Assembly (NCBI GenBank): GCA_044426075.1
Contig: JAWXUT010000001.1
Coordinates: 1 to 50,688 of the forward strand
Reading direction: 5' to 3'
Source of the DNA: Bacillota bacterium
GTDB lineage: Bacteria; Bacillota; Clostridia; Christensenellales; DTU072
Length of the DNA stretch: 50,688 nucleotides
The notes beneath the pieces are model-generated. The model was not told the origin of the DNA and made no database searches. It was given only the letters and a program-made list of their open reading frames with translations. The translations under genes were made by a program, and so were the position numbers. Positions 1,166-50,688 of this stretch are shown in pieces (position 1 is the stretch's first letter; the number at the start of each line of letters is the position of its first letter).

Positions 1166-2038
1166 ATGAACAGCATGACTGGCTACGGCAAAGGTGAAGC
1201 AGAATTAGGTGGCAGAAAAGCGACTGTTGAATTAAAATCTGTTAATCATAGGTTTTTAGACTTATCAATTAAGCTTCCACGCGGGTTTCAATTTGTTGAA
1301 GATAGTATAAAAAAAGCGATATCGGCTTCTTGTACAAGGGGACATATTGATGCTTATGTAAATTATGAGGATAACAGAGAAAGCAAAGCAGTAATCAGTA
1401 TAGATTATGACTTGGTTCAGCAATATATCAATGCATCATTACAACTTGCAGCAAAGGGATTTAGTGACAATTTAGGTGTTGCAGAAATATTAAAGGTTCC
1501 CGATGTTGTAAAGATTGTTGCAGATACTGACGACGAAAATGAAATTCAAAAGGTTGTGGTTGAAGCAGCACAGAAGGCGGTTGTGGCTCTTGTAAAAATG
1601 CGTGGCGCAGAGGGTGCACGATTAGTGGCAGACTTAAAATTGAAGCTAATTGATATACAAAACGGCGTTAATCGCATAGCAGTTCAAGCTCCAAATGTGC
1701 AAATTGAGCACAGAGAAAAGATGATTGAGCGCATACAAGAGGTGCTCGGTGATGTTACGTTAGACGAGCAAAAACTTGCAAATGAAGTGGCTTTTTATGC
1801 AGATAAATGCAATATAGATGAAGAAATAACAAGGCTCAACGGGCACATAGCGCATTACAACGAGATATTTTCTGCGGGTGGCGCAATGGGCAAAAAGCTT
1901 GATTTCTTGACGCAAGAAACAAACCGAGAAGTAAACACTATCGGCAGTAAATCCAATAACAGTATCATTACAAAAGAAGTATTGCTCCTTAAAAACATAG
2001 TAGAAATGATTAGGGAACAAGTGCAAAATATTGAGTAG
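1166..2038 (+). CDS. yicC: YicC family stress-induced protein
   Basis: MNSMTGYGKGE...VELKSVNHRFLD N-terminus and a C-terminal DFLTQETNREVNTIGSK motif. ATG at 1166 is preceded by GGAGAA. The ORF-track start at 1073 overlaps the upstream gene and is rejected. Confidence 0.85.
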   Translation: MNSMTGYGKGEAELGGRKATVELKSVNHRFLDLSIKLPRGFQFVEDSIKKAISASCTRGHIDAYVNYEDNRESKAVISIDYDLVQQYINASLQLAAKGFSDNLGVAEILKVPDVVKIVADTDDENEIQKVVVEAAQKAVVALVKMRGAEGARLVADLKLKLIDIQNGVNRIAVQAPNVQIEHREKMIERIQEVLGDVTLDEQKLANEVAFYADKCNIDEEITRLNGHIAHYNEIFSAGGAMGKKLDFLTQETNREVNTIGSKSNNSIITKEVLLLKNIVEMIREQVQNIE

Positions 2039-2053
2039 TCAAGGAGTAGCATC

Positions 2054-2668
2054 GTGGGCAGAAGAGGATTATTATTTGTATTATCAGGACCATCAGGCGC
2101 GGGTAAAGGCACGGTGTTAGACCGCGTCATACAAGTTGTGGATAACATTGCGGTGTCAACATCAGTCACCACGCGCGACCCTCGTCCAGGTGAAATAGAC
2201 GGACTACATTATTATTTCAAAACACAAGAAGAATTTGCAGATATGGTTCAAAATGATGAATTTTTAGAGTATGTTGCAAAATTCAAGAACAAATATGGCA
2301 CACCTAAAGCCCCAGTTCAAAAGCTATTGAATGACGGATACGATGTTGTGCTTGAAATTGAAACAAACGGGGCTGAAAATATTCGCAAGGTATTCCCAGA
2401 AGCGTGTTTCATATTTATAACACCAAGTAGCTATGCTGAACTTGCCCGCAGATTGAACACAAGGGGCACAGAAACAGAAGAGTCTAAGCAATTAAGGCTA
2501 AAAATAGCAAAGCGCGAGTATACTTGTATGAAGGATTATTCATATGTGAGTATCAATGATGATTTAGACGATTGCGTACAAAATGTAATCGGCATAATAA
2601 AAGCACAGCGATGTGCGCTAGCAAACAATCAAGAATTAGTAGAAAATTTTTTCACATTAAACAGTTAA
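2054..2668 (+). CDS. gmk: Guanylate kinase
   Basis: P-loop SGPSGAGKGT. GTG start 7 nt after AAGGAG (2041..2046). Conserved yicC-gmk-rpoZ context. Confidence 0.9.
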   Translation: MGRRGLLFVLSGPSGAGKGTVLDRVIQVVDNIAVSTSVTTRDPRPGEIDGLHYYFKTQEEFADMVQNDEFLEYVAKFKNKYGTPKAPVQKLLNDGYDVVLEIETNGAENIRKVFPEACFIFITPSSYAELARRLNTRGTETEESKQLRLKIAKREYTCMKDYSYVSINDDLDDCVQNVIGIIKAQRCALANNQELVENFFTLNS

Positions 2669-2684
2669 AGGAGACTGAAACATT

Positions 2685-2876
2685 ATGATGATAGATCCAC
2701 CAATCGACAAACTAGTACAAAAGGCACCTTGCCGTTACGCATTAGTAGTAGCAGTTGCAAAAAGAACCAAAGAAATTTTGGCTCTTGAAGACAGCGAACA
2801 ACTTACAAACGGAGAAAAAGCGGTTTCATTTGCAGCAAAAGAAATCTATAACGGTGATATAAAAATTATACTTTAG
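2685..2876 (+). CDS. rpoZ: DNA-directed RNA polymerase subunit omega
   Basis: 63 aa with IDKLV...RYALVVAVAKRTKEI, a typical omega sequence. Sits between gmk and coaBC. Confidence 0.85.
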   Translation: MMIDPPIDKLVQKAPCRYALVVAVAKRTKEILALEDSEQLTNGEKAVSFAAKEIYNGDIKIIL

Positions 2877-2880
2877 TAGT

Positions 2881-4056
2881 ATGAAACGCACTGTTATATT
2901 GGGGATAACTGGTGGAATAGCTAGTTATAAGGCGTGCGAAATAGTCAGCAGACTTAAAAAGCTGAACTATAAAGTGCGCGTAATAATGACGCAGAACGCC
3001 ACCGAGTTTATCACCCCGCTTACATTAGAAACTCTCAGTGAACACCGAGTTGTAACAGATATGTTTGACAAAGAGCGTTCATATGAGGTTGAGCACATCA
3101 GTTATGCAAAGCTTGCTGATGCTTTTGTGATTGCGCCAGCAACGGCAAATGTAATTGCAAAAATAGCAGAAGGCATAGCAGATGATATGTTGACCACCAC
3201 AATAATGGCAACAAAAGCGCCAATAATAATCGCCCCCGCAATGAACACAAATATGTTTAACAGTGAGGCGTGCCAAAAAAATATGGCAATATTAAAAGAG
3301 CGTGGATGTATTTTTATAGAGCCAATTGAGGGTCTACTTGCTTGCGGTGATGTTGGCAAAGGTAAAATGGCAGAGCCCGAAAATATAGTTCAGTGTATTG
3401 ATAATATGCTAACACCTTGCCCTGATTTTAGGGGCAAAAGGGTGCTAATTACAGCGGGAGCAACAAAAGAGCCAATTGATGGAGTTAGATATATAACAAA
3501 CCACAGTAGCGGAAAAATGGGTGTAGCGCTTGCAGAGTGTGCACTTAATCGTGGGGCAGAAGTCACAATGGTGGTTGGTAGCGTAAGCGTGCCACTTCCA
3601 GAAGGTGCAAATATAGTAAAAATAAGCACCACTCAAGATATGTTCCAAGCAGTTATGGACAATTTGGGTGATAGTGAGGTTATAATAAAGGCGGCAGCCC
3701 CCGCAGATTACAAGGTGAAAAATTATTCACCACTAAAGATAAAATCAGAAAATTTAACGCTAGAATTAGTTAAAAATCCCGATATTGCGCGAGCAGTTGG
3801 GGCTAAAAAAGGCGATAAAAAGTTAGTTGTGTTCGCAGCAGAAACACACGAACTTATGGAAAATGCGCACCGCAAATTGCAGTCGAAAAATGCCGATTTA
3901 ATTGTGGCAAATGACGTGACTCAAGAGGGTGCAGGGTTCAATGTAGATACAAACATAGCCACGCTAATTACTAGCGACGGCAGAATAACAGCGCTAGAAA
4001 AGATGTCAAAAGTAGAACTTGCGGACATTATACTAGACACCATAGCAGAGCTTTAA
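2881..4056 (+). CDS. coaBC: Bifunctional phosphopantothenoylcysteine decarboxylase / phosphopantothenate-cysteine ligase
   Basis: N-terminal flavoprotein motif GITGGIASYKA and C-terminal CoaB motif ITAGATKEPIDGVRYITNHSSGKMG. Confidence 0.9.
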   Translation: MKRTVILGITGGIASYKACEIVSRLKKLNYKVRVIMTQNATEFITPLTLETLSEHRVVTDMFDKERSYEVEHISYAKLADAFVIAPATANVIAKIAEGIADDMLTTTIMATKAPIIIAPAMNTNMFNSEACQKNMAILKERGCIFIEPIEGLLACGDVGKGKMAEPENIVQCIDNMLTPCPDFRGKRVLITAGATKEPIDGVRYITNHSSGKMGVALAECALNRGAEVTMVVGSVSVPLPEGANIVKISTTQDMFQAVMDNLGDSEVIIKAAAPADYKVKNYSPLKIKSENLTLELVKNPDIARAVGAKKGDKKLVVFAAETHELMENAHRKLQSKNADLIVANDVTQEGAGFNVDTNIATLITSDGRITALEKMSKVELADIILDTIAEL

Positions 4057-6236
4057 TGATATACCAAGTAATAGTTGATATTAGTAATTCCGAAGTGGAT
4101 AAAGTATTTGACTACAGTAGCGCCACGCCAATTGCGGTTGGAAGTAGGGTGCTAGTGCCATTTGGTCATAGGCAAATTGAGGGCTTTGTGATGGGAACAA
4201 AAACCGAAAGTCATCGTGAAACCAAAGATATTATTAAGGTTTTAGATGACTTTACTGCTATATCCCCCGAAATGATAGCGCTAGCAAACCACTTAAAAAC
4301 AGTCAATTTACGATACATTGATTCGCTTAGGTTGTTTATCCCTAGCAAGTTGAGGGGTGGCAGAATAAAGGTTCTCAAAAAGAATTATCTTACAATTAAT
4401 AGGGATATTAGTGTAGAAGATATGCTGCTATCCATAAAAGCAAACGCAGTTGCGCAGCGCGGAATTATAGCAAGGCTCAGTGAAGTTGACGGCGAATATG
4501 AGTCAACTATTAACAGCGAATTTAATGCGGGAGCTACAAAAAAGCTCATCGAAATGGGCTATATAATAAGCGAATCCATTGAAGTTGGGCGTGTGCCATA
4601 TAGCATTAATATAGAAAAGAAACACATTGTTTTAACAGAAGATCAACAAAATGCGGTTGACACCATAGTAAATGGCGACAAAATGACGCATCTTTTGCAC
4701 GGTGTTACGGGTTCTGGCAAAACAGAAGTTTATATGACTATTATTGAACAGATGTTGCAAAGCGGTAAAACTGCAATAATGTTGGTGCCAGAAATTTCAC
4801 TTACACCGCAGATGTTGGGCGTATTTAGAAATAGGTTCCACAATCAAGTTAGTTTACTGCATAGTGGATTATCAGACGGCGAGCGATTTGATGAGTGGCG
4901 TAGGCTACAACGCGGAGAAAGCAAGGTTGCACTTGGTGCGCGTTCTGCAATATTTGCACCAGTACAAAATGTGGGTGCTATTATTATAGATGAAGAGCAC
5001 GACAGCAGTTATGTAAGCGAAAGCAATCCCAGATATTTTACGGTAGATGTGGCAAGTTTTAGGGCAAAGTACAATAGTGCAAAGCTAATACTTGGCAGTG
5101 CAACACCTTCAGTTGACACATATAATAGTGCAGTTAAGGGTGAATACAATCTTGTAAAGCTAGAAAATAGAGTCAATAAACGCGCTATGCCAACAATTGA
5201 TGTGGTTGATATGAGAAGCGAACTTAGGCAAGGCAACTTCTCAATTTTTAGCAAAGAGTTGTTGCGTGCAATTGAGAGCACCTTAGCGGATAAAAATCAA
5301 ATTATGATATATTTAAACCGCAGAGGATACGCTTCATTCTTGCGATGCAAAAGTTGTGGTTGGGTTGCAAAGTGCCCCGATTGCGATGTGTCACTTACAT
5401 ATCATAAGGAAGAAAATAGACTAAAATGCCACTACTGTGGCAAGCAGTTTAATGCAATAGATGATTGCCCAATATGCGGATTTAAGGGACTTAAAGAGGG
5501 CAAAGTGGGTACCGAAAAGGTGGTAAGTGAGATTGCAAGGTTGTTCCCTGAAGCACGGGTGTTGCGTATGGATAATGACACTACAAATACAAAATCCAGC
5601 TATATAGATATATTGCAAGCCTTTAGCAGCGGCGATGCGGATATTTTAGTTGGCACGCAAATGATAGCCAAAGGGCATGACTTTAAAAATGTAACGCTAG
5701 TTGGTATATTAGATGCAGACCTATCACTTTACTTTACGGACTATAGAAGTAATGAGCGCACTTTTCAGTTGATAACGCAAGTTGCGGGTAGAGCGGGCAG
5801 AGAGCAAAAGAGCGGAAGAGTTGTTATGCAGACAAGTAATCCCAAGCACTTTGTGTTCGACTATGCAAAGCGATATGATTATGTTGGATTTTTTGAAAAA
5901 GAAATCAACACGCGCGAAGTTACTAAGTTTCCGCCATTTACAAAAATTGTGCGTATCTTGCTTGTATCAAAAGATGATGACAAAGTTATGGTGGCAACGC
6001 GTGAAATGTATGAGCGATTAAACAAGGTTCGCAACAAGTATGGCAATGCAATAATACGTATGCAACCTATGCGGGCGCCAATCAAGCGTATGCAAACTAA
6101 CTATAGATTCCAAATAGTAATATGGTTGAATGTAGATATCCCGCAAGAAGTTATGGATGCGATTTATAATGAAGCACGTGCAACAAACAAAGATGTGTCA
6201 AGTTTTGTGGAGATAAATCCACAACATATGATGTAA
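4056..6236 (+). CDS. priA: Primosomal protein N' (replication restart helicase PriA)
   Basis: Walker A GVTGSGKTEVY, an IIDEEHD box, and a Cys-rich zinc module (CKSCG...CPDCD...CHYCG...CPICG). TAATG overlap with the coaBC stop. Confidence 0.92.
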   Translation: MIYQVIVDISNSEVDKVFDYSSATPIAVGSRVLVPFGHRQIEGFVMGTKTESHRETKDIIKVLDDFTAISPEMIALANHLKTVNLRYIDSLRLFIPSKLRGGRIKVLKKNYLTINRDISVEDMLLSIKANAVAQRGIIARLSEVDGEYESTINSEFNAGATKKLIEMGYIISESIEVGRVPYSINIEKKHIVLTEDQQNAVDTIVNGDKMTHLLHGVTGSGKTEVYMTIIEQMLQSGKTAIMLVPEISLTPQMLGVFRNRFHNQVSLLHSGLSDGERFDEWRRLQRGESKVALGARSAIFAPVQNVGAIIIDEEHDSSYVSESNPRYFTVDVASFRAKYNSAKLILGSATPSVDTYNSAVKGEYNLVKLENRVNKRAMPTIDVVDMRSELRQGNFSIFSKELLRAIESTLADKNQIMIYLNRRGYASFLRCKSCGWVAKCPDCDVSLTYHKEENRLKCHYCGKQFNAIDDCPICGFKGLKEGKVGTEKVVSEIARLFPEARVLRMDNDTTNTKSSYIDILQAFSSGDADILVGTQMIAKGHDFKNVTLVGILDADLSLYFTDYRSNERTFQLITQVAGRAGREQKSGRVVMQTSNPKHFVFDYAKRYDYVGFFEKEINTREVTKFPPFTKIVRILLVSKDDDKVMVATREMYERLNKVRNKYGNAIIRMQPMRAPIKRMQTNYRFQIVIWLNVDIPQEVMDAIYNEARATNKDVSSFVEINPQHMM

Positions 6237-31901: not shown

Positions 31902-31977
31902 TGGTGGACAATAACGGGCTCGAACCGCTGACTTCCTCCACGTCAAGGAGACACTCTACCAGCTGAGTTAATTGTCC
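31902..31977 (-). tRNA. tRNA-Val (anticodon GAC), CCA encoded
   Basis: Manual cloverleaf: perfect 7-bp acceptor GGACAAT/ATTGTCC, D stem ACTC/GAGT, anticodon stem TCTCC/GGAGG with loop TTGACGT. T arm AGCGG-TTCGAGC-CCGTT, discriminator A73, 3' CCA, 76 nt. Confidence 0.85.
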
Positions 31978-35336: not shown

Positions 35337-36659
35337 TTACTTAACTACTTCATACGTTGTATTTTTGCCGTTTCCGCTTTTACTAATAGCACCTTTATCT
35401 AACAGTGTTCTTAAATGTTTTGTAGCCATTGGTTGTGATATTTTTAACAATTCTTCTAAATCTTTGCGCTTAAATTCTGAATATTTTCTCAATTTACTGC
35501 AAATAAATTGCTCATTTTGTGTAAGTTTAGTTGTTGCAATATCTTTTACAGAAGCTGCGGCGTTGCTAGAAGCTGTAGCTAGATTATTGTAAAGTGTTAT
35601 TCTAAAGGCATTGTTTGTGGCTTCAATTAATGGTTTGTTGGGTGTGCTGTTGTAACTCCCCATAATTTTGATAATTCCAGTGCCATAAGCTTCAATTAAT
35701 TTTAGTCTATAAAAAACATTTGCCAAATTTTTATTCCGCAAAATAGAAACGCCAAGTTTCATATCCTCCAAAGAAATTCCACGCAAAAGCCCACCTACGG
35801 TTACAAGTTCAATTCTGTTGTCAAAAATGCTAATTAATGTGCTTGAAGTTAAAGAGTAGTCGCGATGAACTATGGCATTTAATAGCGCTTCTCTAATTGC
35901 TATTTCGGGATATGCCCTATAATCTACCCTTTGGAGCCCATTAAATTCTGCACGGGTGCTGTTGTGAATATTTATAAACTCAAAACATTCACGCAACTGC
36001 ATAAATAATGAACCCGAAAACTCCTTTCTGTCTACAAAAACTTCTTTGGTTTCGCCTTGAAAAACAGCAACTTTTGTTGTGTGCATACATTGGTCGGAAA
36101 GAAGAAGCCCCAAATTTGTATAAAGTTCATCTGAACCGACAATGTTGAGGGTGCGCATTTGCTCGCTTGCAAATCGTATATGTGAATTGATAAATTCTCT
36201 GTTACAGCTATCAAATGTTAAATTTTGATTTAAAGCGCGCACATCTTCAAAATTATCGCCCGATGTTTCCTTTATCATTTTAAGAATTGCAGTGTCGGTT
36301 GCGGGAACTGAAGATGCTCCTTGTCTAACAAATACGCCTTCTGGACGGATACCTTTACCTGCAATATAATATGGTGAAGATGTACCTTTTTGCACTTCAA
36401 TTACAATTATATTTTTTTCTTGCATAGAAGCAATGGCGCAATTAACAAACATCATAATATCGGGCTTTACGCTTTCACGCAATAAATTTGTGGTTTTTAG
36501 CAACACCTCATCTGCGTTACTTACACCTATAACAGATAAATCATCTTCAACACCAATATAAATTTTGCCACCAAAAGTATTTGCAAAAGCAATAACTGTT
36601 TTTTTAATTTCAGCGGTATATTCTCTTTTGTATTCTACATTTATATTTTCGAGTTGCAT
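35337..36659 (-). CDS. AlbA_2 (Schlafen-like) + HATPase_c_4 ('RecG C-terminal-like') + C-terminal winged-HTH protein; putative DNA-binding regulator
   Basis: N-terminal VEYKREY...VIAFANTFGGKIYIGVEDD (AlbA_2), central REALLNAIVHRDY...RNKNLANVF...EAYGTGIIKI (HATPase_c_4), and a C-terminal HTH (DLEELLKISQPMATKHLRTLLDKG). The ATG at 36659 lies 6 nt after GGAGGAA. The upstream ATG at 36674 is part of that SD region. Confidence 0.8.
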   Translation of the reverse strand: MQLENINVEYKREYTAEIKKTVIAFANTFGGKIYIGVEDDLSVIGVSNADEVLLKTTNLLRESVKPDIMMFVNCAIASMQEKNIIVIEVQKGTSSPYYIAGKGIRPEGVFVRQGASSVPATDTAILKMIKETSGDNFEDVRALNQNLTFDSCNREFINSHIRFASEQMRTLNIVGSDELYTNLGLLLSDQCMHTTKVAVFQGETKEVFVDRKEFSGSLFMQLRECFEFINIHNSTRAEFNGLQRVDYRAYPEIAIREALLNAIVHRDYSLTSSTLISIFDNRIELVTVGGLLRGISLEDMKLGVSILRNKNLANVFYRLKLIEAYGTGIIKIMGSYNSTPNKPLIEATNNAFRITLYNNLATASSNAAASVKDIATTKLTQNEQFICSKLRKYSEFKRKDLEELLKISQPMATKHLRTLLDKGAISKSGNGKNTTYEVVK

Positions 36660-36677
36660 CTTAAATTCCTCCATTTG

Positions 36678-42681: not shown

Positions 42682-42889
42682 TGTCAACGTGACATTGACA
42701 AAAATCTGAAAAAAGCAAATCTGTCAACGTGACATTGACAAAAATCTGAAAAAAGCAAATCTGTCAACGTAACATTGACAAAAATCTGAAAAAAGCAAAT
42801 CTGTCAACGTAACATTGACAAAAATCTGAAAAAAGCAAATCTGTCAACGTGACATTGACAAAAATCTGAAAATTCTACTTTTGTCAACC
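42682..42889. repeat. 40-bp tandem repeat array (5 units plus the start of a sixth)
   Basis: Units start at 42682, 42722, 42762, 42802, 42842 and (partial) 42882. Consensus TGTCAACGT[G/A]ACATTGACAAAAATCTGAAAAAAGCAAATC. Confidence 0.95.
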
Positions 42890-42940: not shown

Positions 42941-42973
42941 TGCAAACAAAACAAGCACCTCGCGGGTGCTTGT
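42941..42973 (-). terminator. Intrinsic terminator of the Kdo operon
   Basis: On the minus strand, the ACAAGCACC-CGCGA-GGTGCTTGT hairpin is followed by TTTGTTTGCA, directly after the kdsC stop. Confidence 0.75.
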
Positions 42974-42982
42974 CAATCATTG

Positions 42983-43440
42983 TTATTTGTTAAGTGTTTC
43001 TATAAATCCTCTTACTGCTCCATTACCACCGTTATAGGCCGATACAAAATGCGCTACTTGTTTAATTTCTTGTACTGCGTCCTTTGGACAACCTACATAA
43101 CCGCATTGTTGCATAACTTCTAAGTCGTTTAAATCGTCCCCGATATAAGCAACCTCGCTCATATCTATTTTCAAATCTGAAACAACTTCTTTTAATTGGG
43201 GCAACTTATCGTGTATGCCTTGATAAAGCAATTTAATATTTAATTCTTTACATCTTTGCTCTGTGATTTCCGACTTACGCCCCGTTATTATGCAAGGAGT
43301 AATCCCAATTTGTGGCAATATAACACCTATTGCATAGCCATCTTTTACATTAAATGCCTTAACTGCCTCACCTTGCGAACCTATATATATTTTTCCATCT
43401 GTCAACGTCCCATCAACATCCATTACTAATAGTTTAATCA

Positions 43441-43441
<1 letters not shown>
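42983..43441 (-). CDS. kdsC: 3-deoxy-D-manno-octulosonate 8-phosphate phosphatase (HAD-IIIA)
   Basis: LVMDVDGTLTDG nucleophile motif, ITGR, and GDDLNDL. 152 aa. Confidence 0.85.
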
Positions 43442-45928
<2,487 letters not shown>

Positions 45929-45938
45929 TTTTATGCTC

Positions 45939-48900
45939 CTATTTAATAAATTTGCTTACGTATTCTTGCATGCTTTTCTCATGCTTACCTTTAATCTTAC
46001 TAAAATCTTTATCCTTATTTTTTACATATTGCTCAATACAATCAAATACATATTGATACCATTCATCTTTAAAATGCAATGGGTAAATACCCCACGTGTG
46101 AATTGGTGAACCTATGTTATTAGTTAGAGTCTCTACAACAACTATATCATCACCTACATATTGTCTAAATGCCTCCGTAGCAGGCTTAATCAGATCAAAT
46201 GCTGACATGCTTTGGTATTGTAGGTGTTCTAAACATCCATTTGCCTCATTTGCAATTTGATTTATCGGATAGGATTCTATTAAAATAACTTTTTTAGCAG
46301 GATAAATTCGCTTAACAGAATCAGCAATATATTTTATTGTTTTTTGTATAATATCTTCACAAATCATATCAGCTTTAATATCTTCTTCCACAAAATCCTT
46401 TAGAAGTTGACCACCATTTTTTTCTTTATACTTATTGTAGACATTAGTTCTTGTAATTAAATATGATTCCATTTCATTCCGCATTAAAACCATTGGCAAA
46501 CGCATATCGGCAAGATCTATTACTAAATACTCACTCTTAGTTGATAGTAGATAACTAATTCCTGAACTATTTACATCCCTAACAAAACATTTTCGCCTAA
46601 ATAAAGATATGTTTTTGTCCTCGAAATCAACATTTTCTACATTGATACGAACTCTTTCTGGATATAGAAAAGATTTTATTGGATTTGATAATGAAACATA
46701 GTTATTGATAACATACTTATTTTCTTTATCGCAAATTCTAAATATATCGCGACTTACGCAACAACCCAAAATGCTAAATGTGTTTTTATGATATCCACTA
46801 TATTTAACATCAAAACTTGCATCTAAATTTAATTGATCTTTTAATTCTTTTTCTCTTTTGTTCGCTTGCAATTTTAAACATTTATTTATTTCTGCTTTCT
46901 TTTGTTCTAGTTGTAATGTCTTTATTTCTGTTTCAAGCCTGCAATTTCTATTCTTATAAGCTTGGATTTTCAAATTGTTTTTAAGCTCAATTAGTGCGCT
47001 GCCTAATATTGCACAAACACTTATTTCTATGCCTAATGACATTAATTTTTTAGCTATTTTTAACCTATTAATTTGCGATAAATCATCTTTATTTCTAGAA
47101 TAAAAATATAAATATTCATCTTCCAAGCCGTATTGGAGCATGTCGTTATCGGGGCTTTTAGTGATTTTCATTATAGCTATATCATCTATCATTTCTGGAT
47201 CATGTGCTAAAATCTCTTCTAAATAAGACGTTATAGCATAAATTCTTGCCGCACTTTTAAGATTTTTAACGAAAGGTACTATCCTATCATAATCATTATC
47301 ATATTTTTGAGTCCAACAGATTTCATTACACAATACAAATTGATTATTGTTTTGCGCTTGATACCATGAAGTTGCCATGAAATAGCTAGGGTGCATGAAT
47401 ACTTCATGATCAAAAATGCCATATCTAGTTAATTGTGCATCACTAAAAAATTTATTCCTTACTATATTTGCGACATCATATCGGATTAAAAATTTTGCAA
47501 ATACCTCTATGTATCGTTCTCCAAAATAAAATTGTTCAGATTCATTCTTGCAAGTTTTTCGCACTAAATGCACCTTTTTCGTGTATACGATTTTATTCGT
47601 ACTGTAAATATCCATTGTGTTTTTAAGAGCAGTTATTATTTTCAGATAATCGCGATCTTCTTTTGATACTTTCAGTAGTGCTTTGGTCGATGTATAATAT
47701 TCAGCCAAACAAGATATACACTTTATTCTTTCATCCGAAGAATATTGTATGCCATAATCGCATTCTACATCTACAAATACATCATATTTTTTACATTCAA
47801 TATTGGTTTTAATACGCACCAACTCATCAGCTGCACTTTTTACTTCAAGTTTTATTCCAGTATACTGCAGTTCACGCGAAAAAACAAAGCTCTCAATGTG
47901 AGACCTTTTATCCTCATTTTTACAAAATACATATATAAATTCTTTTTCAAAATTACCTACTGCTTTGGGATTTATCTGTATTTTTGACAACTCTATTAAT
48001 GTCATATATCCCAACACTGCCCAATCCAAAAAACCATCGTTTTGCTTGGTGTTTAAAACTACAATTACATCAAGTTCGTTTGCGTTTTTGATGTAAGAAT
48101 TGGCTGCAATATTAAAATTCTCTTCCGACTCATCTACATTATCTAAGATAGTAAACTCATTAGTCTTTGTTAATTTAGTCAACACGCTAACCTCATTGTT
48201 TTTTTGTTGACTTTCATTTGAAAATATGCTGTAAAATGCACTAGTTAATCCATATATGCTTTGGCATTTTGTGCCTAAGAAACAAGACAACTCTTTGGCT
48301 GTATATGCCTTTAGAACAACATTTGCATATGCATACATGTCATTTGATACACCCATACATTTACATTCTGGAAACATATTGGCAATGTTTAAAACTGAAT
48401 CTGATCCAAATCCACATATAAACTTTAAATCTATATTTGTCATAAATGGCAATAATTCTGCAGGCACATAACCAGGGAAAGTGTTTAAATCCTTAGTGTC
48501 CTTTAAAATAGTAGTCATTGATGGATGAGGTTTAATCGTTAAATTATTACAATCATCAACAAGTAAATCTAAAAATAAAGCATTTGTTGTAAAGTAAGCA
48601 TTATCTCTACCATTGAAATATTTCTTATAAAAATCATCTGAATGCAAACGTTTTGAAGCTACGGCATCTGATGAAGGCATAAAAAATGACGTGATATTCT
48701 CTGTGCAATTTTTCAAACCATATCCGATAATTATATTTTCAATATCCATTTTGCTTAAAGTTTTAAATTCACTTGGCCAATTGAAATCTTCAAATGCTAT
48801 TGGTGTAATTAATGGATTGCTATATGCTAACAATACTTTATGATTATCGCATACTTTTGCATAATCTGGAACATTGAAGTTAGCTGAATACACCCACTCT

Positions 48901-49307
48901 GGATGCTTCTCAAATTTCTTCATAGAACCACGACCAAGTTCTAGTCTGTTATATTTAATACACTTTAGAGAAAAATAAATTCCTAAAGAATCTGGTATAT
49001 CTATAGAATTATATATTTCAGAAAATGCGCCAAAATTTATTTTCTCTTTAGCAAAAACTTGATCATATTTTTCGAGAATTGCTTGCTCTATTTTCTCGAC
49101 ACTTCCCCTCAATCCTTCGGCAAAATTTGCTTCATATGGAATAACTCTTGTGAAAATAGATTGCATTTGCTTAACATTGTATTTGTTACCAATATGCCAT
49201 CTTGTATTCCCAACCAAAAGAATAGCATCCTCATTCCTATGTTTGGTTAATCTATGCACAATGCACTGAATTAATGAGCCCCCATGATATAATGCATATA
49301 AAACCAT
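45939..49307 (-). CDS. 1,122-aa multidomain hypothetical protein; putative Kdo (ulosonic-acid) glycosyltransferase/polymerase with coiled-coil linker and an unassigned C-terminal module
   Basis: AGGAG lies 6 nt before the ATG and overlaps the GT2 stop. Its own stop overlaps the kdsB SD. A His-Pro motif (LTIKPHPS, aa 257-264) is followed by FICGFGSDS, and a heptad-rich stretch spans about aa 776-830. The C-terminal module starts FSILGCCVSRD. I recognise no confident family match. Confidence 0.5.
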   Translation of the reverse strand: MVLYALYHGGSLIQCIVHRLTKHRNEDAILLVGNTRWHIGNKYNVKQMQSIFTRVIPYEANFAEGLRGSVEKIEQAILEKYDQVFAKEKINFGAFSEIYNSIDIPDSLGIYFSLKCIKYNRLELGRGSMKKFEKHPEWVYSANFNVPDYAKVCDNHKVLLAYSNPLITPIAFEDFNWPSEFKTLSKMDIENIIIGYGLKNCTENITSFFMPSSDAVASKRLHSDDFYKKYFNGRDNAYFTTNALFLDLLVDDCNNLTIKPHPSMTTILKDTKDLNTFPGYVPAELLPFMTNIDLKFICGFGSDSVLNIANMFPECKCMGVSNDMYAYANVVLKAYTAKELSCFLGTKCQSIYGLTSAFYSIFSNESQQKNNEVSVLTKLTKTNEFTILDNVDESEENFNIAANSYIKNANELDVIVVLNTKQNDGFLDWAVLGYMTLIELSKIQINPKAVGNFEKEFIYVFCKNEDKRSHIESFVFSRELQYTGIKLEVKSAADELVRIKTNIECKKYDVFVDVECDYGIQYSSDERIKCISCLAEYYTSTKALLKVSKEDRDYLKIITALKNTMDIYSTNKIVYTKKVHLVRKTCKNESEQFYFGERYIEVFAKFLIRYDVANIVRNKFFSDAQLTRYGIFDHEVFMHPSYFMATSWYQAQNNNQFVLCNEICWTQKYDNDYDRIVPFVKNLKSAARIYAITSYLEEILAHDPEMIDDIAIMKITKSPDNDMLQYGLEDEYLYFYSRNKDDLSQINRLKIAKKLMSLGIEISVCAILGSALIELKNNLKIQAYKNRNCRLETEIKTLQLEQKKAEINKCLKLQANKREKELKDQLNLDASFDVKYSGYHKNTFSILGCCVSRDIFRICDKENKYVINNYVSLSNPIKSFLYPERVRINVENVDFEDKNISLFRRKCFVRDVNSSGISYLLSTKSEYLVIDLADMRLPMVLMRNEMESYLITRTNVYNKYKEKNGGQLLKDFVEEDIKADMICEDIIQKTIKYIADSVKRIYPAKKVILIESYPINQIANEANGCLEHLQYQSMSAFDLIKPATEAFRQYVGDDIVVVETLTNNIGSPIHTWGIYPLHFKDEWYQYVFDCIEQYVKNKDKDFSKIKGKHEKSMQEYVSKFIK

Positions 49308-49316
49308 AATTTACTC

Positions 49317-50678
49317 CTATTTGCTTGCTAGTTTTTTAACTGCACCGAACTTGCCTTTTTCTATTGCATGTACAAATGCAATGTCATTTTTAGAACCTAA
49401 TTTTTTTATTTCTGCTACGGTGTCTTTGTAGCTTATAACATTGAACATATCAGCTTTTGCTTTTATGCAATACTCGTTAAAAAACTCTTTTCTTATTTTT
49501 GTAAGGGCATATTTATGTGTGTGTACTTTACACAACTGTATTAAGCCCCTTGTTTGGTCAGTAAACTTCTTTCTTGATGACATATGTGTATCTAAATGCT
49601 TAAATATATCAAAATGAACGTATAGCCTTTGGTCATCTGCTGCTACATCTTGCCCTTCTCTTGCTAATCTATAGTAATACAAATATTCTGATATTGACAC
49701 AACTGAACGCGCAGAAGAATATATTTCAACCTTAAAAGGCAAATCATCAAATCTTGGCAAATCTGTATAGAATGAAATTTTTGATTGCTCGATTCTACTT
49801 CTTAAATAAATACCGCGCCAAATTGCAACTCGTAAACTTGCCATAAGTTCACGAACTTTTGCAGCATCTGTAACGCCATTACAATATGGATAACCGATAT
49901 TATCCTCAACTTGTACAATTTCGCCCGTATTTTCATATAAAAAATTAAATCCGCAGTGGCTAATTTCATAACTGCCTTGCATAGCTCTTGATAATAATTT
50001 TTTATACATTGTTGGGTCAATATAATCATCTGGATCTATAAAGCCGATATAGGTGCCTTGTGCCCTATCCATGCCATATTGCCTTGCTGAAGCACAACCA
50101 CCATTTTCTTTAGTTAGTAGTTTAATTCTGTTATCATTTTTTGCATATTCTTGCACTATTTCTGCACAATTATCGGGTGAACCATCATCAACAAATAAAA
50201 ATTCAATGTAGGGAGCTTTCCACGCAGTTACGGTTTCTATGCACTTTGGTAAATATTTTGCTATGTTGTACATAGGCAAAATTACACTTAGTTCTATATC
50301 CCTTTTTGTCCATGCTAAAATTTCGCTAGGCTTATCTATCCCCCAACCGAACAAATACATACTTTCGGCATATTCTCTAGCTTTTTCCCATACGCTAAAT
50401 GAACTTACATCATCACTATTCAATGTACCAACAATATGTTGTGGTTTAAAAAATTCTAGTTCATATATTATTGCATCTTCAGAATCGGGCGTATCAAAAA
50501 CAAAGGCATCGCAGTCTAAACTTTTTGCCTTATCTAGCCCATCACGCAACAAATATGTTATTTTTTTAGGCATATTAATTGTTTTATCAAATTCAGTTAT
50601 TTTTTTTAATTCTTGTTTTACATCTTTTAATTGTTCTTGCTCATTCCAAATTAGACATACTTCTGTTAACTTTGTCAC
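49317..50678 (-). CDS. Family-2 glycosyltransferase with an N-terminal extension of about 125 aa (5' end may lie outside the window)
   Basis: GT-A core SVILPMYN...FVDDGSPDN...IGFIDPDD (DxD). The listed GTG start at 50678 has no SD, and the frame stays open to position 50688. Confidence 0.75.
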   Translation of the reverse strand: MTKLTEVCLIWNEQEQLKDVKQELKKITEFDKTINMPKKITYLLRDGLDKAKSLDCDAFVFDTPDSEDAIIYELEFFKPQHIVGTLNSDDVSSFSVWEKAREYAESMYLFGWGIDKPSEILAWTKRDIELSVILPMYNIAKYLPKCIETVTAWKAPYIEFLFVDDGSPDNCAEIVQEYAKNDNRIKLLTKENGGCASARQYGMDRAQGTYIGFIDPDDYIDPTMYKKLLSRAMQGSYEISHCGFNFLYENTGEIVQVEDNIGYPYCNGVTDAAKVRELMASLRVAIWRGIYLRSRIEQSKISFYTDLPRFDDLPFKVEIYSSARSVVSISEYLYYYRLAREGQDVAADDQRLYVHFDIFKHLDTHMSSRKKFTDQTRGLIQLCKVHTHKYALTKIRKEFFNEYCIKAKADMFNVISYKDTVAEIKKLGSKNDIAFVHAIEKGKFGAVKKLASK

Positions 50679-50688
50679 TTTAAGAATA

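Follow-up and report, generated by a model that had tools for sequence, protein, structure and literature searches.

Which enzyme uses the CMP-Kdo supplied by a complete biosynthetic pathway, and for which surface structure, is the question raised by a large open reading frame (ORF) found next to four Kdo genes in the window, the stretch of 50,688 nt analyzed here. The favoured answer, considered probable, is a protein in which an inverting Kdo transferase using CMP-Kdo is joined to a domain for O-acyl modification of glycans, and which serves a wall or capsular glycan. It largely supports the overall interpretation of a first-pass annotation made on the same DNA.

The large ORF and its operon

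The ORF spans positions 45939..49307 of the minus strand (the strand had been left unstated at first), starts with ATG and encodes 1,122 aa plus a stop. It is a real gene, as first proposed, and all the motifs quoted at the time lie at the residues given to them in the translated product, named in the protein database 'DUF6270 domain-containing protein [Bacillota bacterium]'. An AGGAG ribosome-binding site (49314..49318, minus strand), read directly from the sequence, precedes the ATG by 6 nt and overlaps the stop codon (TAG) of a co-directional family-2 glycosyltransferase (GT2) gene (49317..50688, minus strand). The GT2 gene is N-terminally incomplete: its frame runs on to the contig end, where the cluster is truncated. 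No transporter, initiating transferase or ligase of the locus comes into view, as the contig stops within this gene.

The other genes of the operon also reside on the minus strand. The kdsB gene (CMP-Kdo synthetase, 45191..45928; NCBIfam NF009905, 281.5 bits, cut-off 255) starts 10 nt past the stop of the large ORF, and is followed by kdsA (Kdo-8-phosphate synthase, 44427..45203; NF003543, 430 bits, cut-off 242), kdsD/kpsF (arabinose-5-phosphate isomerase, 43441..44430; TIGR00393, 242 bits, cut-off 203.7) and kdsC (Kdo-8-phosphate phosphatase, 42983..43441; TIGR01670, 173 bits, cut-off 107). The operon end is marked by an intrinsic-terminator-like hairpin with a T-run (42950..42974, minus strand), directly 3' of kdsC. 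The order is GT2, large ORF, kdsB-kdsA-kdsD-kdsC, terminator, with the kds genes tightly packed. The ORF had been placed at the heart of a Kdo operon; the kds genes do adjoin it, but it is the second visible gene and lies upstream of them, not in their middle. This canonical Kdo pathway, translationally packed behind the large ORF, is the sole CMP-sugar pathway in the window.

The transferase unit and its relatives

The product had been divided into three modules, the first assigned to aa 1-370. The modules were found, but the conserved unit of module 1, as measured by the extent of homologue alignments, is aa 1-500. Its core (aa 1-370; 48198..49307, minus strand) features two Rossmann-like domains in a GT-B fold of the GT38/GT52/GT80 sialyltransferase type. 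A beta-rich C-terminal subdomain (aa 371-500; 47808..48197, minus strand; strands at 372-491 in the model) completes the family unit, and is missing in classical GT38/GT52 proteins, as in a GT52-like protein of 333 aa from L006, a locus with a DUF6270 gene. The AF2 model of module 1 (pLDDT 92.2, pTM 0.90) has as top Foldseek match in the PDB 5wcn_A, a GT38 polysialyltransferase with CDP (E=1.2e-5, prob 1.00), with GT80 and GT52 sialyltransferases next (further matches are 4v2u, 2ex0 and 2yk5); TM-scores are modest (0.39/0.49). The sialyltransferase-like GT-B fold had been anticipated. No GT99, GT107 or GT140 structure occurs in the top 50 matches. In profile searches the window protein falls below every Pfam and NCBIfam glycosyltransferase model, Pfam GT38 and GT52 included.

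The protein carries VLYALYHGGSLIQCIV at aa 2-17, LTIKPHPS at aa 256-263 (H261, P262) and FICGFGSDS at aa 296-304. The K259-P-H261-P262 tetrapeptide (48522..48533, minus strand) is the 'HP motif', already suspected to be significant and now recognized as a family signature: among 70 homologues K259 and H261 are invariant, and E123, D247, Y111 and P262 are conserved in at least 90%. E123 (48939..48941, minus strand), presumed to lie in the active site, is a candidate catalytic base, and precedes H261 by 138 residues, the same spacing that separates E153 from H291 in the polysialyltransferase of Mannheimia haemolytica (MhPST). In sialyltransferases the His of the HP motif stabilizes the CMP leaving group; in MhPST, where E153 and H291 are the equivalents of E123 and H261, S339 and T340 help bind the CMP phosphate (PMC5517516). 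The S302-D-S304 residues (G-S-x-S; 48396..48404, minus strand), kept among close homologues at the position of the family-consensus 'ST', would correspond in place to S339/T340.

The protein had been regarded as an orphan. About 120 (121) representative homologues of module 1 were found, and one protein, P0006, shares the full architecture. PF07388 is reached by 6 of 70 family members. A protein that passes both PF07922 (GT52) and PF07388 (GT38) is matched by the family HMM at 94 bits (E=3.5e-31), and hhalign aligns the close subfamily with this protein (95.7%), with E123, HP and GS.S in register. Homology to GT38/GT52 is demonstrable because intermediate sequences connect the families. Module 1 is therefore a divergent, unmodelled branch of the GT38/GT52 bacterial sialyltransferase superfamily, rather than the new type of transferase initially envisaged. 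The GT-B fold, the HP motif, the acidic residue 138 positions upstream, the Ser/Thr pair about 40–48 residues downstream and genomic coupling to a CMP-sugar synthetase are shared with GT38 (NeuS/SiaD; MhPST, 5wcn; PF07388) and GT52 (PF07922) enzymes. In contrast to these, the window protein fails both Pfam models, has the extra subdomain of ~130 aa, is coupled to a pathway making Kdo, not sialic acid, carries a pseudo-copy, a helical linker and DUF6270 on the same polypeptide, and resides in a Gram-positive-type Clostridia host.

Homologues that never co-occur with kds or neu genes had been named beforehand as a refuting outcome, and the loci speak against it. In 6 of the 7 loci whose flanks are long enough to be counted, a CMP-sugar cytidylyltransferase gene adjoins or is near the module 1 homologue; CTP_transf_3 genes were found in the window and in L003, L004, L014, L016 and L018. 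L016 also carries kdsA, kdsD, kdsC, Glf, a GlfT2-like gene, an ABC-2 transporter, a sortase and an LCP ligase. Most cytidylyltransferases beside homologues are not KdsB, but divergent enzymes, PseF-like below threshold, which pair with pyruvate aldolases (HMGL-like, Eda, RraA-like). The donor of the family is therefore not uniformly Kdo, and module 1 might use a different CMP-activated 2-keto-3-deoxy or nonulosonic acid, or a donor unrelated to these, leaving CMP-Kdo to the GT2 or to an enzyme encoded off the contig, which is truncated within the upstream gene. This is improbable for the window protein, behind which only the Kdo pathway is packed, and the close homologues in L016 and L004 are paired with kds or KdsB-like genes. 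Moreover, NDP-sugars, rather than CMP-ulosonic acids, are the typical donors of GT2 enzymes. CMP-Kdo is the predicted donor of module 1.

The duplicate, the helical segment and DUF6270

Module 2 (aa ~529-775; 46983..47723, minus strand), previously left unassigned, is a truncated paralogous copy of module 1 aa 230-496 (hhalign 99.1%, E=1.1e-18), made by the C-terminal Rossmann half and the beta subdomain. In hmmsearch the second domain matching the family profile covers aa 586-826. The copy features KVSKED where module 1 has IKPHPS; because the HP motif is replaced, module 2 is presumably non-catalytic. P0006 has a complete second copy of the transferase unit. The K/E/Q-rich segment that follows (aa 776-835; 46803..46982, minus strand; the string quoted at first lies at aa 785-826) is presumably an alpha-helical linker or a short coiled coil, and a segment of like length is found at the same place in P0006. 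It had been described as heptad-rich; the heptad periodicity over aa 785-826 is weak (10 of 25 positions in a crude a/d count).

Module 3 (aa 846-1079; 46071..46772, minus strand) corresponds to Pfam DUF6270 (PF19786, E=1.9e-16); the sequence FSILGCCVSRD occupies aa 844-854. A DUF of SGNH/flavodoxin-like fold had been suggested, and the AF2 model, built on 6 sequences and with one low-confidence stretch (pLDDT 79, pTM 0.82), has an alpha/beta fold resembling SGNH/GDSL hydrolases. Foldseek matches (3bzw, 8gr2, 4h08, 6njc, 4k3u) have E-values of about 1e-4 and modest TM-scores (0.36–0.5), and include sialate and peptidoglycan O-acetylesterases. G848, C850, R853, D931 and H1078 are invariant across DUF6270. 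The G848-C849-C850 triplet (46758..46766, minus strand) marks the beta1/alpha1 junction, the site of G-D-S in SGNH enzymes, and C850 is a candidate nucleophile, the equivalence resting on secondary-structure position. D931 (46515..46517, minus strand) ends the third core strand of the model. H1078 (46074..46076, minus strand), in a PLH[FY] motif, takes the place of the SGNH block V His, and is a candidate general base. Two helices close the protein (aa 1080-1122; 45942..46070, minus strand; model helices 252-268 and 274-292); the last is lysine-rich, and they might, speculatively, contact the membrane or a partner.

The best matches, among them Ape1 (4k3u), Cj0610c (8gr2) and a sialate O-acetylesterase (6njc), have the small-residue/nucleophile motif immediately behind strand 1 and the His ahead of the final helices at the same places as DUF6270. 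They differ in that DUF6270 has G-C-C for G-D-S, lacks GxND and DxxH blocks as such, and in the window is cytoplasmic and fused to a glycosyltransferase. DUF6270 genes occur in glycan loci; a literature search retrieved no paper with the name DUF6270. The domain might not modify acyl groups at all, but bind glycans or partners without catalysis, or be a transferase of other chemistry, giving the protein two functions in backbone synthesis. The missing canonical blocks and the level of the Foldseek E-values are consistent with this, as is L006, where a hexapeptide acetyltransferase gene already adjoins the DUF6270 gene. Such a function is a tangible but minority possibility: the invariant Cys, Asp and His match SGNH catalytic residues topologically, carbohydrate O-acetyl esterases consistently rank as the closest structures, and no GT fold occurs among the Foldseek matches. 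O-acyl modification is hence preferred.

A proposed model for Kdo addition to a surface glycan

The protein may be viewed as a cytoplasmic multi-domain enzyme helping to assemble a Kdo-containing cell-surface glycan, either wall polysaccharide or capsule. CMP-beta-Kdo would be made by KdsD, KdsA, KdsC and KdsB from the same operon, and module 1 (aa 1-500) would move Kdo onto a lipid-linked glycan, itself the work of the upstream GT2 and of enzymes encoded beyond the contig end. If the GT38 enzymes are taken as a guide, the CMP-phosphate leaving group would be handled by His261 and Ser302/Ser304, with Glu123 as the base, yielding an inverted, alpha-linked Kdo. Module 2, a likely dead remnant of a tandem duplicate, and the following helical segment probably serve as spacer and as oligomerisation or scaffold elements. 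Module 3, by means of Cys850 and His1078 (plus Asp931), most likely adds or removes O-acyl groups, for example O-acetyl, on the same glycan.

Fused Kdo transferases have functional analogues, since coiled-coil multi-module proteins with such activity exist in Gram-negatives: WbbB (GT99), ORF7-O4 (GT137) and KrkA (GT140) (PMC11231755, PMC12887879). WbbB, from Raoultella terrigena and Klebsiella pneumoniae O12, joins a GT99 beta-Kdo terminator, a coiled coil and GT102/GT103 polymerase modules; like the enzyme predicted here, it unites in one protein a transferase that depends on CMP-Kdo and bears an HP motif, a spacer of helical or coiled-coil type, and additional catalytic modules. WbbB works in an ABC-transporter-dependent pathway (PMC11231755, PMC12887879), and the closest homologues of the window protein lie in loci of that kind. 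In contrast, the partner module of the window protein is SGNH-like, not a GT. GT99 is retaining, and its GT-B fold is strongly modified, the N-domain being reduced and a helical subdomain present (PMC12887879). ORF7 of K. pneumoniae O4 is a CMP-Kdo-dependent alpha-(2->2)-Kdo chain terminator, made by two beta/alpha/beta domains and a C-terminal coiled coil (PMC11231755). Close homologues of the window protein would most likely have an ORF7-O4-like activity and role.

Because the closest homologues consist of the transferase unit and long coiled coils and reside in ABC-transporter-dependent loci, we incline to the addition of single Kdo residues, either capping the chain or placed at its side, rather than to processive polymerisation. 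GT38 enzymes are polymerases, which counts against such a role. ABC ATPases near homologues show no recognisable cap-binding module at the C terminus. Alternatively, the protein could be a processive polymerase of a capsule or wall polymer: module 1 would then make a Kdo homopolymer, or, jointly with the GT2, a repeat containing Kdo, and DUF6270 would O-acylate the product. The models are GT38 making polysialic acid and OatC or NeuO O-acylating it; the best structural match, 5wcn, is a polymerase, four co-transcribed genes make up a complete Kdo supply pathway, and the multi-domain layout recalls capsule polymerases such as KrkA (PMC12887879). We consider this rather unlikely, as the family is linked just as much to the mono-sialyltransferases of GT52, and the coiled-coil tails of the closest homologues are typical of terminators, in loci holding other polymerising GTs (GlfT2-like, TagF-like, GT61). 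Single additions remain the favoured role.

Kdo is the classical sugar of lipopolysaccharide (LPS), and the MAG is labelled at NCBI only as 'Bacillota bacterium'. That the operon serves LPS in a diderm member of the Bacillota, the large protein being an LPS core or O-antigen enzyme, is nevertheless very improbable. PriA of the window (at best 59% identity) is related to proteins from Clostridia and Christensenellales-type MAGs, not from Negativicutes or Halanaerobiales; no lpx, waaA or other LPS genes are found within the 50,688-nt window; and the sortase and LCP ligase in L016, as the LCP genes in DUF6270 loci, are hallmarks of wall-polymer attachment in monoderms. The host is best read as a Christensenellales-like Clostridia bacterium of Gram-positive type. 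In a bacterium of this kind Kdo is unexpected, and the protein placed beside its pathway belongs to a branch of the bacterial sialyltransferase superfamily that has no name yet.

Organization of the kds operon and its surroundings

The window is a complete 50,688-bp contig from a MAG labelled Bacillota bacterium. The 1,122-aa protein is encoded on the minus strand at 45939..49307 by an ORF starting with ATG. An AGGAG motif located 6 nt 5' of the start codon overlaps the preceding gene's stop codon, and all the peptide strings quoted in the first-pass annotation were found at their given residues. Four genes of the Kdo pathway (kdsB, kdsA, kdsD/kpsF and kdsC) lie downstream on the same strand, separated by gaps or overlaps of 13 nt at most. 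kdsB, found 10 nt downstream of the large ORF, matches NF009905 with 281.5 bits (cut-off 255), and kdsA reaches 430 bits (cut-off 242). A hairpin and a T-run are located directly 3' of kdsC. At the opposite side, the frame of a family-2 glycosyltransferase (GT2; 49317-50688) continues without a stop as far as the contig end, and the locus is therefore truncated. The GT2 gene is listed as a 453-aa ORF with a GTG start, yet is N-terminally truncated; within the visible part, the GT2 domain does not begin before about residue 130, and may be preceded by another domain.

G+C content is 32.8% in the glycan cluster (42983-50688), against 38.8% in the remaining 42 kb. Lowered G+C is typical of surface-polysaccharide loci, and the drop is compatible with lateral acquisition. 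Housekeeping functions are encoded in the other 40 kb, which include a single tRNA gene (31905-31977, minus strand) upstream of ileS, and a gene for a Schlafen/AlbA_2 and HATPase_c_4 protein (35337-36674, minus strand) between ileS and guaA. Neither T-box nor other Rfam families reach threshold anywhere in the window. The intergenic region between a GH3 gene and kdsC hosts 4.8 tandem copies (98% identical, TRF score 368) of a 40-bp unit at 42682-42872. Each unit contains the imperfect palindrome TTGTCAATGTYACGTTGACA, with a T-rich tail after it, and the array was scored as four hairpins in the terminator scan. The repeats may act as an operator array or as repeated terminators, or may be a repeat element.

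Module 1 and the sialyltransferase superfamily

Pfam and NCBIfam models match nothing in the first 845 residues of the protein; no NCBIfam match was found for the protein as a whole, and no Pfam match for aa 1-500 even at E<=10. A word-indexed protein search with the full-length sequence as query retrieved only one homologue, and exhaustive HMMER searches were therefore needed. With aa 1-780 as query, these identified 121 representative proteins among 1.84 billion, most of them 500-550 aa long and aligned over aa 1-500 (module 1). A scan of GTDB genomes with the 7 closest sequences gave 17 matching stretches, none of which was confirmed, and module 1 had no tblastn match on plasmids. Searches against PDB sequences failed both with the whole protein (nothing meaningful; best match FGFR2 kinase, E=0.63) and with a 70-sequence module-1 profile (no match), so that fold comparison was needed.

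The AlphaFold2 model obtained from the 70-sequence alignment (pLDDT 92.2, pTM 0.90) features two full Rossmann-like domains arranged in a GT-B fold. In Foldseek searches of the PDB the top match was 5wcn, the GT38 polysialyltransferase of Mannheimia haemolytica (MhPST) with CDP (E=1.2e-5, prob 1.00), followed by the GT80 Pasteurella sialyltransferases 4v2u and 2ex0 and the GT52 Neisseria enzyme 2yk5, and at later ranks by GT1 enzymes and UDP-GlcNAc 2-epimerases. The ranking of the model is the pattern expected for a sialyltransferase-type GT-B enzyme. TM-scores are modest (0.39/0.49), probably owing to GT-B domain opening and to an extra subdomain at aa 371-500. The first-pass annotation had proposed a GT-B-like module on the basis of a His-Pro (HP) motif. 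The fold agrees with the proposal, and the motif proved to be a signature of the family: H261 is invariant, as is K259, in the 70-sequence alignment, and P262 is conserved in at least 90% of the sequences, as are Y111, E123 and D247. In the model, H261-P262 comes after strand 256-258 of the C-domain.

Sequence comparisons point in the same direction. The family HMM recognizes a 333-aa protein encoded at L006, a locus carrying a DUF6270 gene, with 94 bits (E=3.5e-31) across the whole GT-B region, and this protein passes both the PF07922 (GT52) and the PF07388 (GT38) models. Alignment by hhalign of the seven closest relatives of module 1 to the L006 protein (probability 95.7%, E=9.5e-9) pairs E123, K-P-H-P and G-S-x-S with E, K-P-H-P and S-S-S, respectively. 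Of the 70 module-1 homologues, 6 reach PF07388. Homology of module 1 to GT38 and GT52 enzymes is confirmed by these indirect links. The protein itself fails both curated Pfam models, and has therefore been assigned to neither family. Module 1 has been filed as a deep, unmodelled branch of the GT38/GT52 superfamily.

The base of MhPST is E153; its HP-motif histidine, H291, stabilises CMP as the leaving group with help from S339 and T340 (PMC5517516). E123, H261 and G-S-x-S are the putative equivalents of E153, H291 and S339/T340. The spacing from the glutamate to the histidine is 138 residues in both proteins. E123 comes after strand 119-122, in a L-E-L-G motif that differs from the D/E-D/E-G motif of the family.

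Functionally, the nearest known proteins are WbbB (GT99), ORF7 of K. pneumoniae O4 (GT137) and KrkA (GT140), all Kdo transferases residing in multi-module or coiled-coil proteins (PMC11231755, PMC12887879). Membership of GT99, GT107 or GT140 was ruled out. In WbbB, KpsC/KpsS (GT107) and KrkA the GT-B fold is modified, the N-domain being reduced and an alpha-helical subdomain being present (PMC12887879), in contrast to the two full domains of the model; no structure of these families was found in the top 50 Foldseek matches of module 1, and PF05159 (GT107) has no match in the protein. GT137, considered for the analogy in terms of Kdo and coiled coils, is set apart by its published fold, described as a pair of beta/alpha/beta domains whose strand order is methyltransferase-like, unlike known glycosyltransferases (PMC11231755). 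Methyltransferases are found among the module-1 matches only from rank 28, at E>0.01. Structurally and evolutionarily, module 1 groups with GT38 and GT52, apart from GT99, GT137 and GT140.

Module 2, the linker and DUF6270

Module 2, left unassigned in the first-pass annotation, can now be traced to module 1. The region spanning aa ~529-775 was aligned by hhalign to aa 230-496, the second half of module 1 (probability 99.1%, E=1.1e-18), and features KVSKED at the place of IKPHPS. Only one homologue, the 1,308-aa protein P0006, has the full architecture, and is 32% identical to the window protein over modules 2 and 3, 23% over module 1. P0006 holds two complete family units (aa 1-494 and 513-993), of which the window protein keeps only the second half of the second. 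The HP motif is absent from the second copy in both. From these alignments it was concluded that module 2 is a decayed duplicate, presumably non-catalytic, which may serve as a scaffold or a spacer. The sole hydrophobic stretch of the protein (aa 755-773, Kyte-Doolittle 2.0) was considered as a transmembrane anchor and rejected, being not conserved in P0006 and mapping to a strand and a helix of the duplicated fold.

The linker (aa 776-835) is rich in K, E and Q, and a segment of similar length is found in P0006. About 50 K/E/Q-rich residues feature weak heptads, with hydrophobic residues at 10 of 25 a/d positions by a crude count. The close stand-alone homologues P0002-P0005, encoded next to ABC-2 transporter genes, have much longer K/E/Q-rich tails (60-240 aa). 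In Gram-negative ABC-transporter-dependent systems a coiled-coil ruler sits on the terminating enzyme (PMC11231755). P0002, P0003 and P0004 (from contigs L001, L004 and L014) end, after the coiled coils, in a conserved basic KYPKGS/TKKR..KKIAK.F motif, which by analogy to the C-terminal helix of WbdD may be a membrane- or partner-binding tail.

Module 3 corresponds to DUF6270 (PF19786), which spans aa 846-1079 and covers all 222 profile positions (E=1.9e-16; 61.1 bits, cut-off 27.5). A word-indexed protein search with this segment alone gave no homologue, and members were therefore collected with a two-sequence profile. Residues G848, C850, R853, D931 and H1078 are invariant in 11 DUF6270 sequences, C849 and S852 nearly so. 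The AlphaFold2 model of the domain, built on 6 sequences (pLDDT 79, pTM 0.82), best matches SGNH/GDSL esterases (3bzw, 8gr2, 4h08, 4q9a, 6njc and 4k3u; prob 0.77-0.99, E 2e-4 to 1e-2), which include a Campylobacter GDSL esterase, sialate O-acetylesterases and the peptidoglycan O-acetylesterase Ape1. The likeness to SGNH folds, proposed for module 3 in the first-pass annotation, is thus borne out by Foldseek. Between strand 1 and helix 1, the domain has G-C-C at the place of the G-D-S of SGNH enzymes, and H1078 sits before the last helices, as the block V histidine does. The canonical GDS, GxND and DxxH motifs are all absent from DUF6270, D931 and H1078 being invariant instead. DUF6270 would thus resemble an SGNH domain in its working, or descend from one, yet is not a canonical member; it is described as SGNH-like, with a probable Cys/His(/Asp) centre. 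O-acyl transfer or removal on a glycan is proposed as its role, and this is the weakest part of the overall scheme. O-acetylation of Kdo is known in the E. coli K13 capsule (PMC12887879). No mention of DUF6270 was found in the literature searched.

DUF6270 genes reside in various glycan loci: beside a GT52/GT38-like gene, NeuB and a gene for CTP_transf_3 (the domain of CMP-sugar cytidylyltransferases) in L006, a TagF-like enzyme and an ABC transporter in L005, a pyruvyl transferase in L007, and GT4, FkbM, ABC transporter and LCP genes in a Rossellomorea megaplasmid. DUF6270 is also fused to Sel1 repeats in the metagenome loci L012 (5221-7632) and L013 (5782-7473). Sel1 repeats are similarly fused to the module-1 family in the homologue P0081, and other module-1 fusions involve polysaccharide pyruvyl transferase, DUF1919 or PGA_cap domains. 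Such domain combinations show that both DUF6270 and the module-1 family are surrounded by a modular toolbox.

Loci of the homologues, donor sugar and proposed role

As expected from the assignment made in the first-pass annotation, module-1 homologues co-occur with kds- or neu-type genes. A CTP_transf_3 gene adjoins those of P0006 (L003), P0004 (L014) and P0032 (L018), two adjoin that of P0003 (L004), and one is found about 1.3 kb downstream of that of P0005 (L016). L016 also carries kdsA, kdsD and kdsC, besides Glf, two GT2s and a GlfT2-like enzyme, as well as a sortase, an LCP ligase and an ABC-2 transporter. Such a gene set is that of an ABC-transporter-dependent locus for wall polysaccharide of Gram-positive type. 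The ABC ATPase of L016 was considered for a cap-binding module, and the candidate was rejected, the extra stretch (about 145 aa) being N-terminal and matching nothing. On the 2.6-kb contig L001, P0002 lies downstream of a Glf fragment and upstream of an ABC-2 permease. The tally omits three further contigs, too short or one-sided to judge. One of these, L017, is a different type of locus: P0009 is followed (1583-5496) by three paralogues that encode C2185-like_N and NKWYS or Methyltransf_21 domains and by a SAM methyltransferase, and no cytidylyltransferase was found in the 5 kb downstream of P0009.

Of the cytidylyltransferases beside the homologues, one is KdsB-like and the others are divergent. 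The divergent CTP_transf_3 proteins (L004, 12257-16017; L014, 5949-8200; L018, 112-2857; L016, 11046-12347) are sub-threshold PseF-like, not KdsB. Their partners are pyruvate aldolases of three unrelated folds, either HMGL-like, Eda/KDPG-type, or with a RraA-like domain fused to the cytidylyltransferase. The pairing suggests that CMP-activated 2-keto-3-deoxy acids are made via a non-NeuB, non-KdsA route, and the module-1 family overall is probably not Kdo-specific. The CMP-sugar pathway in the window, however, is the canonical Kdo one. Use of a CMP-activated ulosonic acid by the window protein, presumably CMP-Kdo, is indicated indirectly by kdsB 10 nt downstream and by the CTP_transf_3 genes at L003, L004, L014, L016 and L018.

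According to the best explanation, the four kds products would make CMP-Kdo, and module 1 would move Kdo to a lipid-linked glycan, the product of the GT2 and of enzymes encoded beyond the visible locus; as in GT38, GT52 and GT80, transfer would proceed by inversion and yield an alpha linkage. The pseudo-glycosyltransferase and the helical segment would space or oligomerise the active domains, and DUF6270 would alter the acylation of the product. The scheme as a whole, from CMP-Kdo supply through transfer and spacing to acyl modification, is regarded as fairly probable. GT38 enzymes are polymerases, and the protein might likewise be a processive one; this is thought rather improbable, because the architecture and the loci of the nearest homologues point to a capping or side-chain role, towards which we lean. 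Transfer of Kdo to flagellin by Maf was rejected, since the Kdo transfer reported is promiscuity in E. coli, and no Maf domain is found in the window.

In textbooks, Kdo belongs to the LPS and capsules of Gram-negative bacteria. A role of the protein in LPS is unlikely: the best matches of the window's PriA (59% identity at most) come from MAGs of uncultured Clostridia and of Christensenellales type, and sortase and LCP genes are found in related loci (L016, the Rossellomorea megaplasmid). The general principle, in which a GT-B enzyme with an HP motif uses a CMP-ulosonic acid inside a modular glycan-assembly protein, is known. New, besides the module-1 family as such, are its links to pathways for Kdo and other keto-deoxy acids in bacteria of Gram-positive type, the tandem copy that has decayed, and a Cys-type SGNH-like DUF as fusion partner. 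The module-1 family was not described in the literature searched on DUF6270, GT38 with Kdo, CMP-Kdo with Firmicutes, Christensenella with Kdo, and teichulosonic acids.

A wider reading is offered as tentative. Christensenellales-type gut Clostridia, which have no outer membrane, might build a Kdo-containing wall polysaccharide or capsule by an unrecognised glycosyltransferase family, a deep sialyltransferase branch deserving its own CAZy family. The family would use various CMP-2-keto-3-deoxy acids, for some of which pyruvate aldolases would take the place of NeuB/KdsA-type synthases, and DUF6270 would be the first SGNH domain with a Cys nucleophile, acting as a cytoplasmic glycan O-acyltransferase.

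Recent Kdo-transferase families (GT99, GT107, GT137, GT140) have been given CAZy families of their own. Neither Pfam nor NCBIfam has a model for the module-1 family (~120 representative clusters), and the searches turned up no characterised member. DUF6270 gains a concrete, testable hypothesis, and module 2 would be a case from nature in which a duplicated glycosyltransferase decays to a structural module. Enzymes attaching Kdo or other keto-deoxy acids with defined stereochemistry would be useful for glyco-engineering. A dedicated Kdo pathway tied to a sialyltransferase-like enzyme in gut Clostridia suggests that this abundant yet little-studied section of the microbiota has surface glycans that are acidic, mimic the host or serve as phage receptors.
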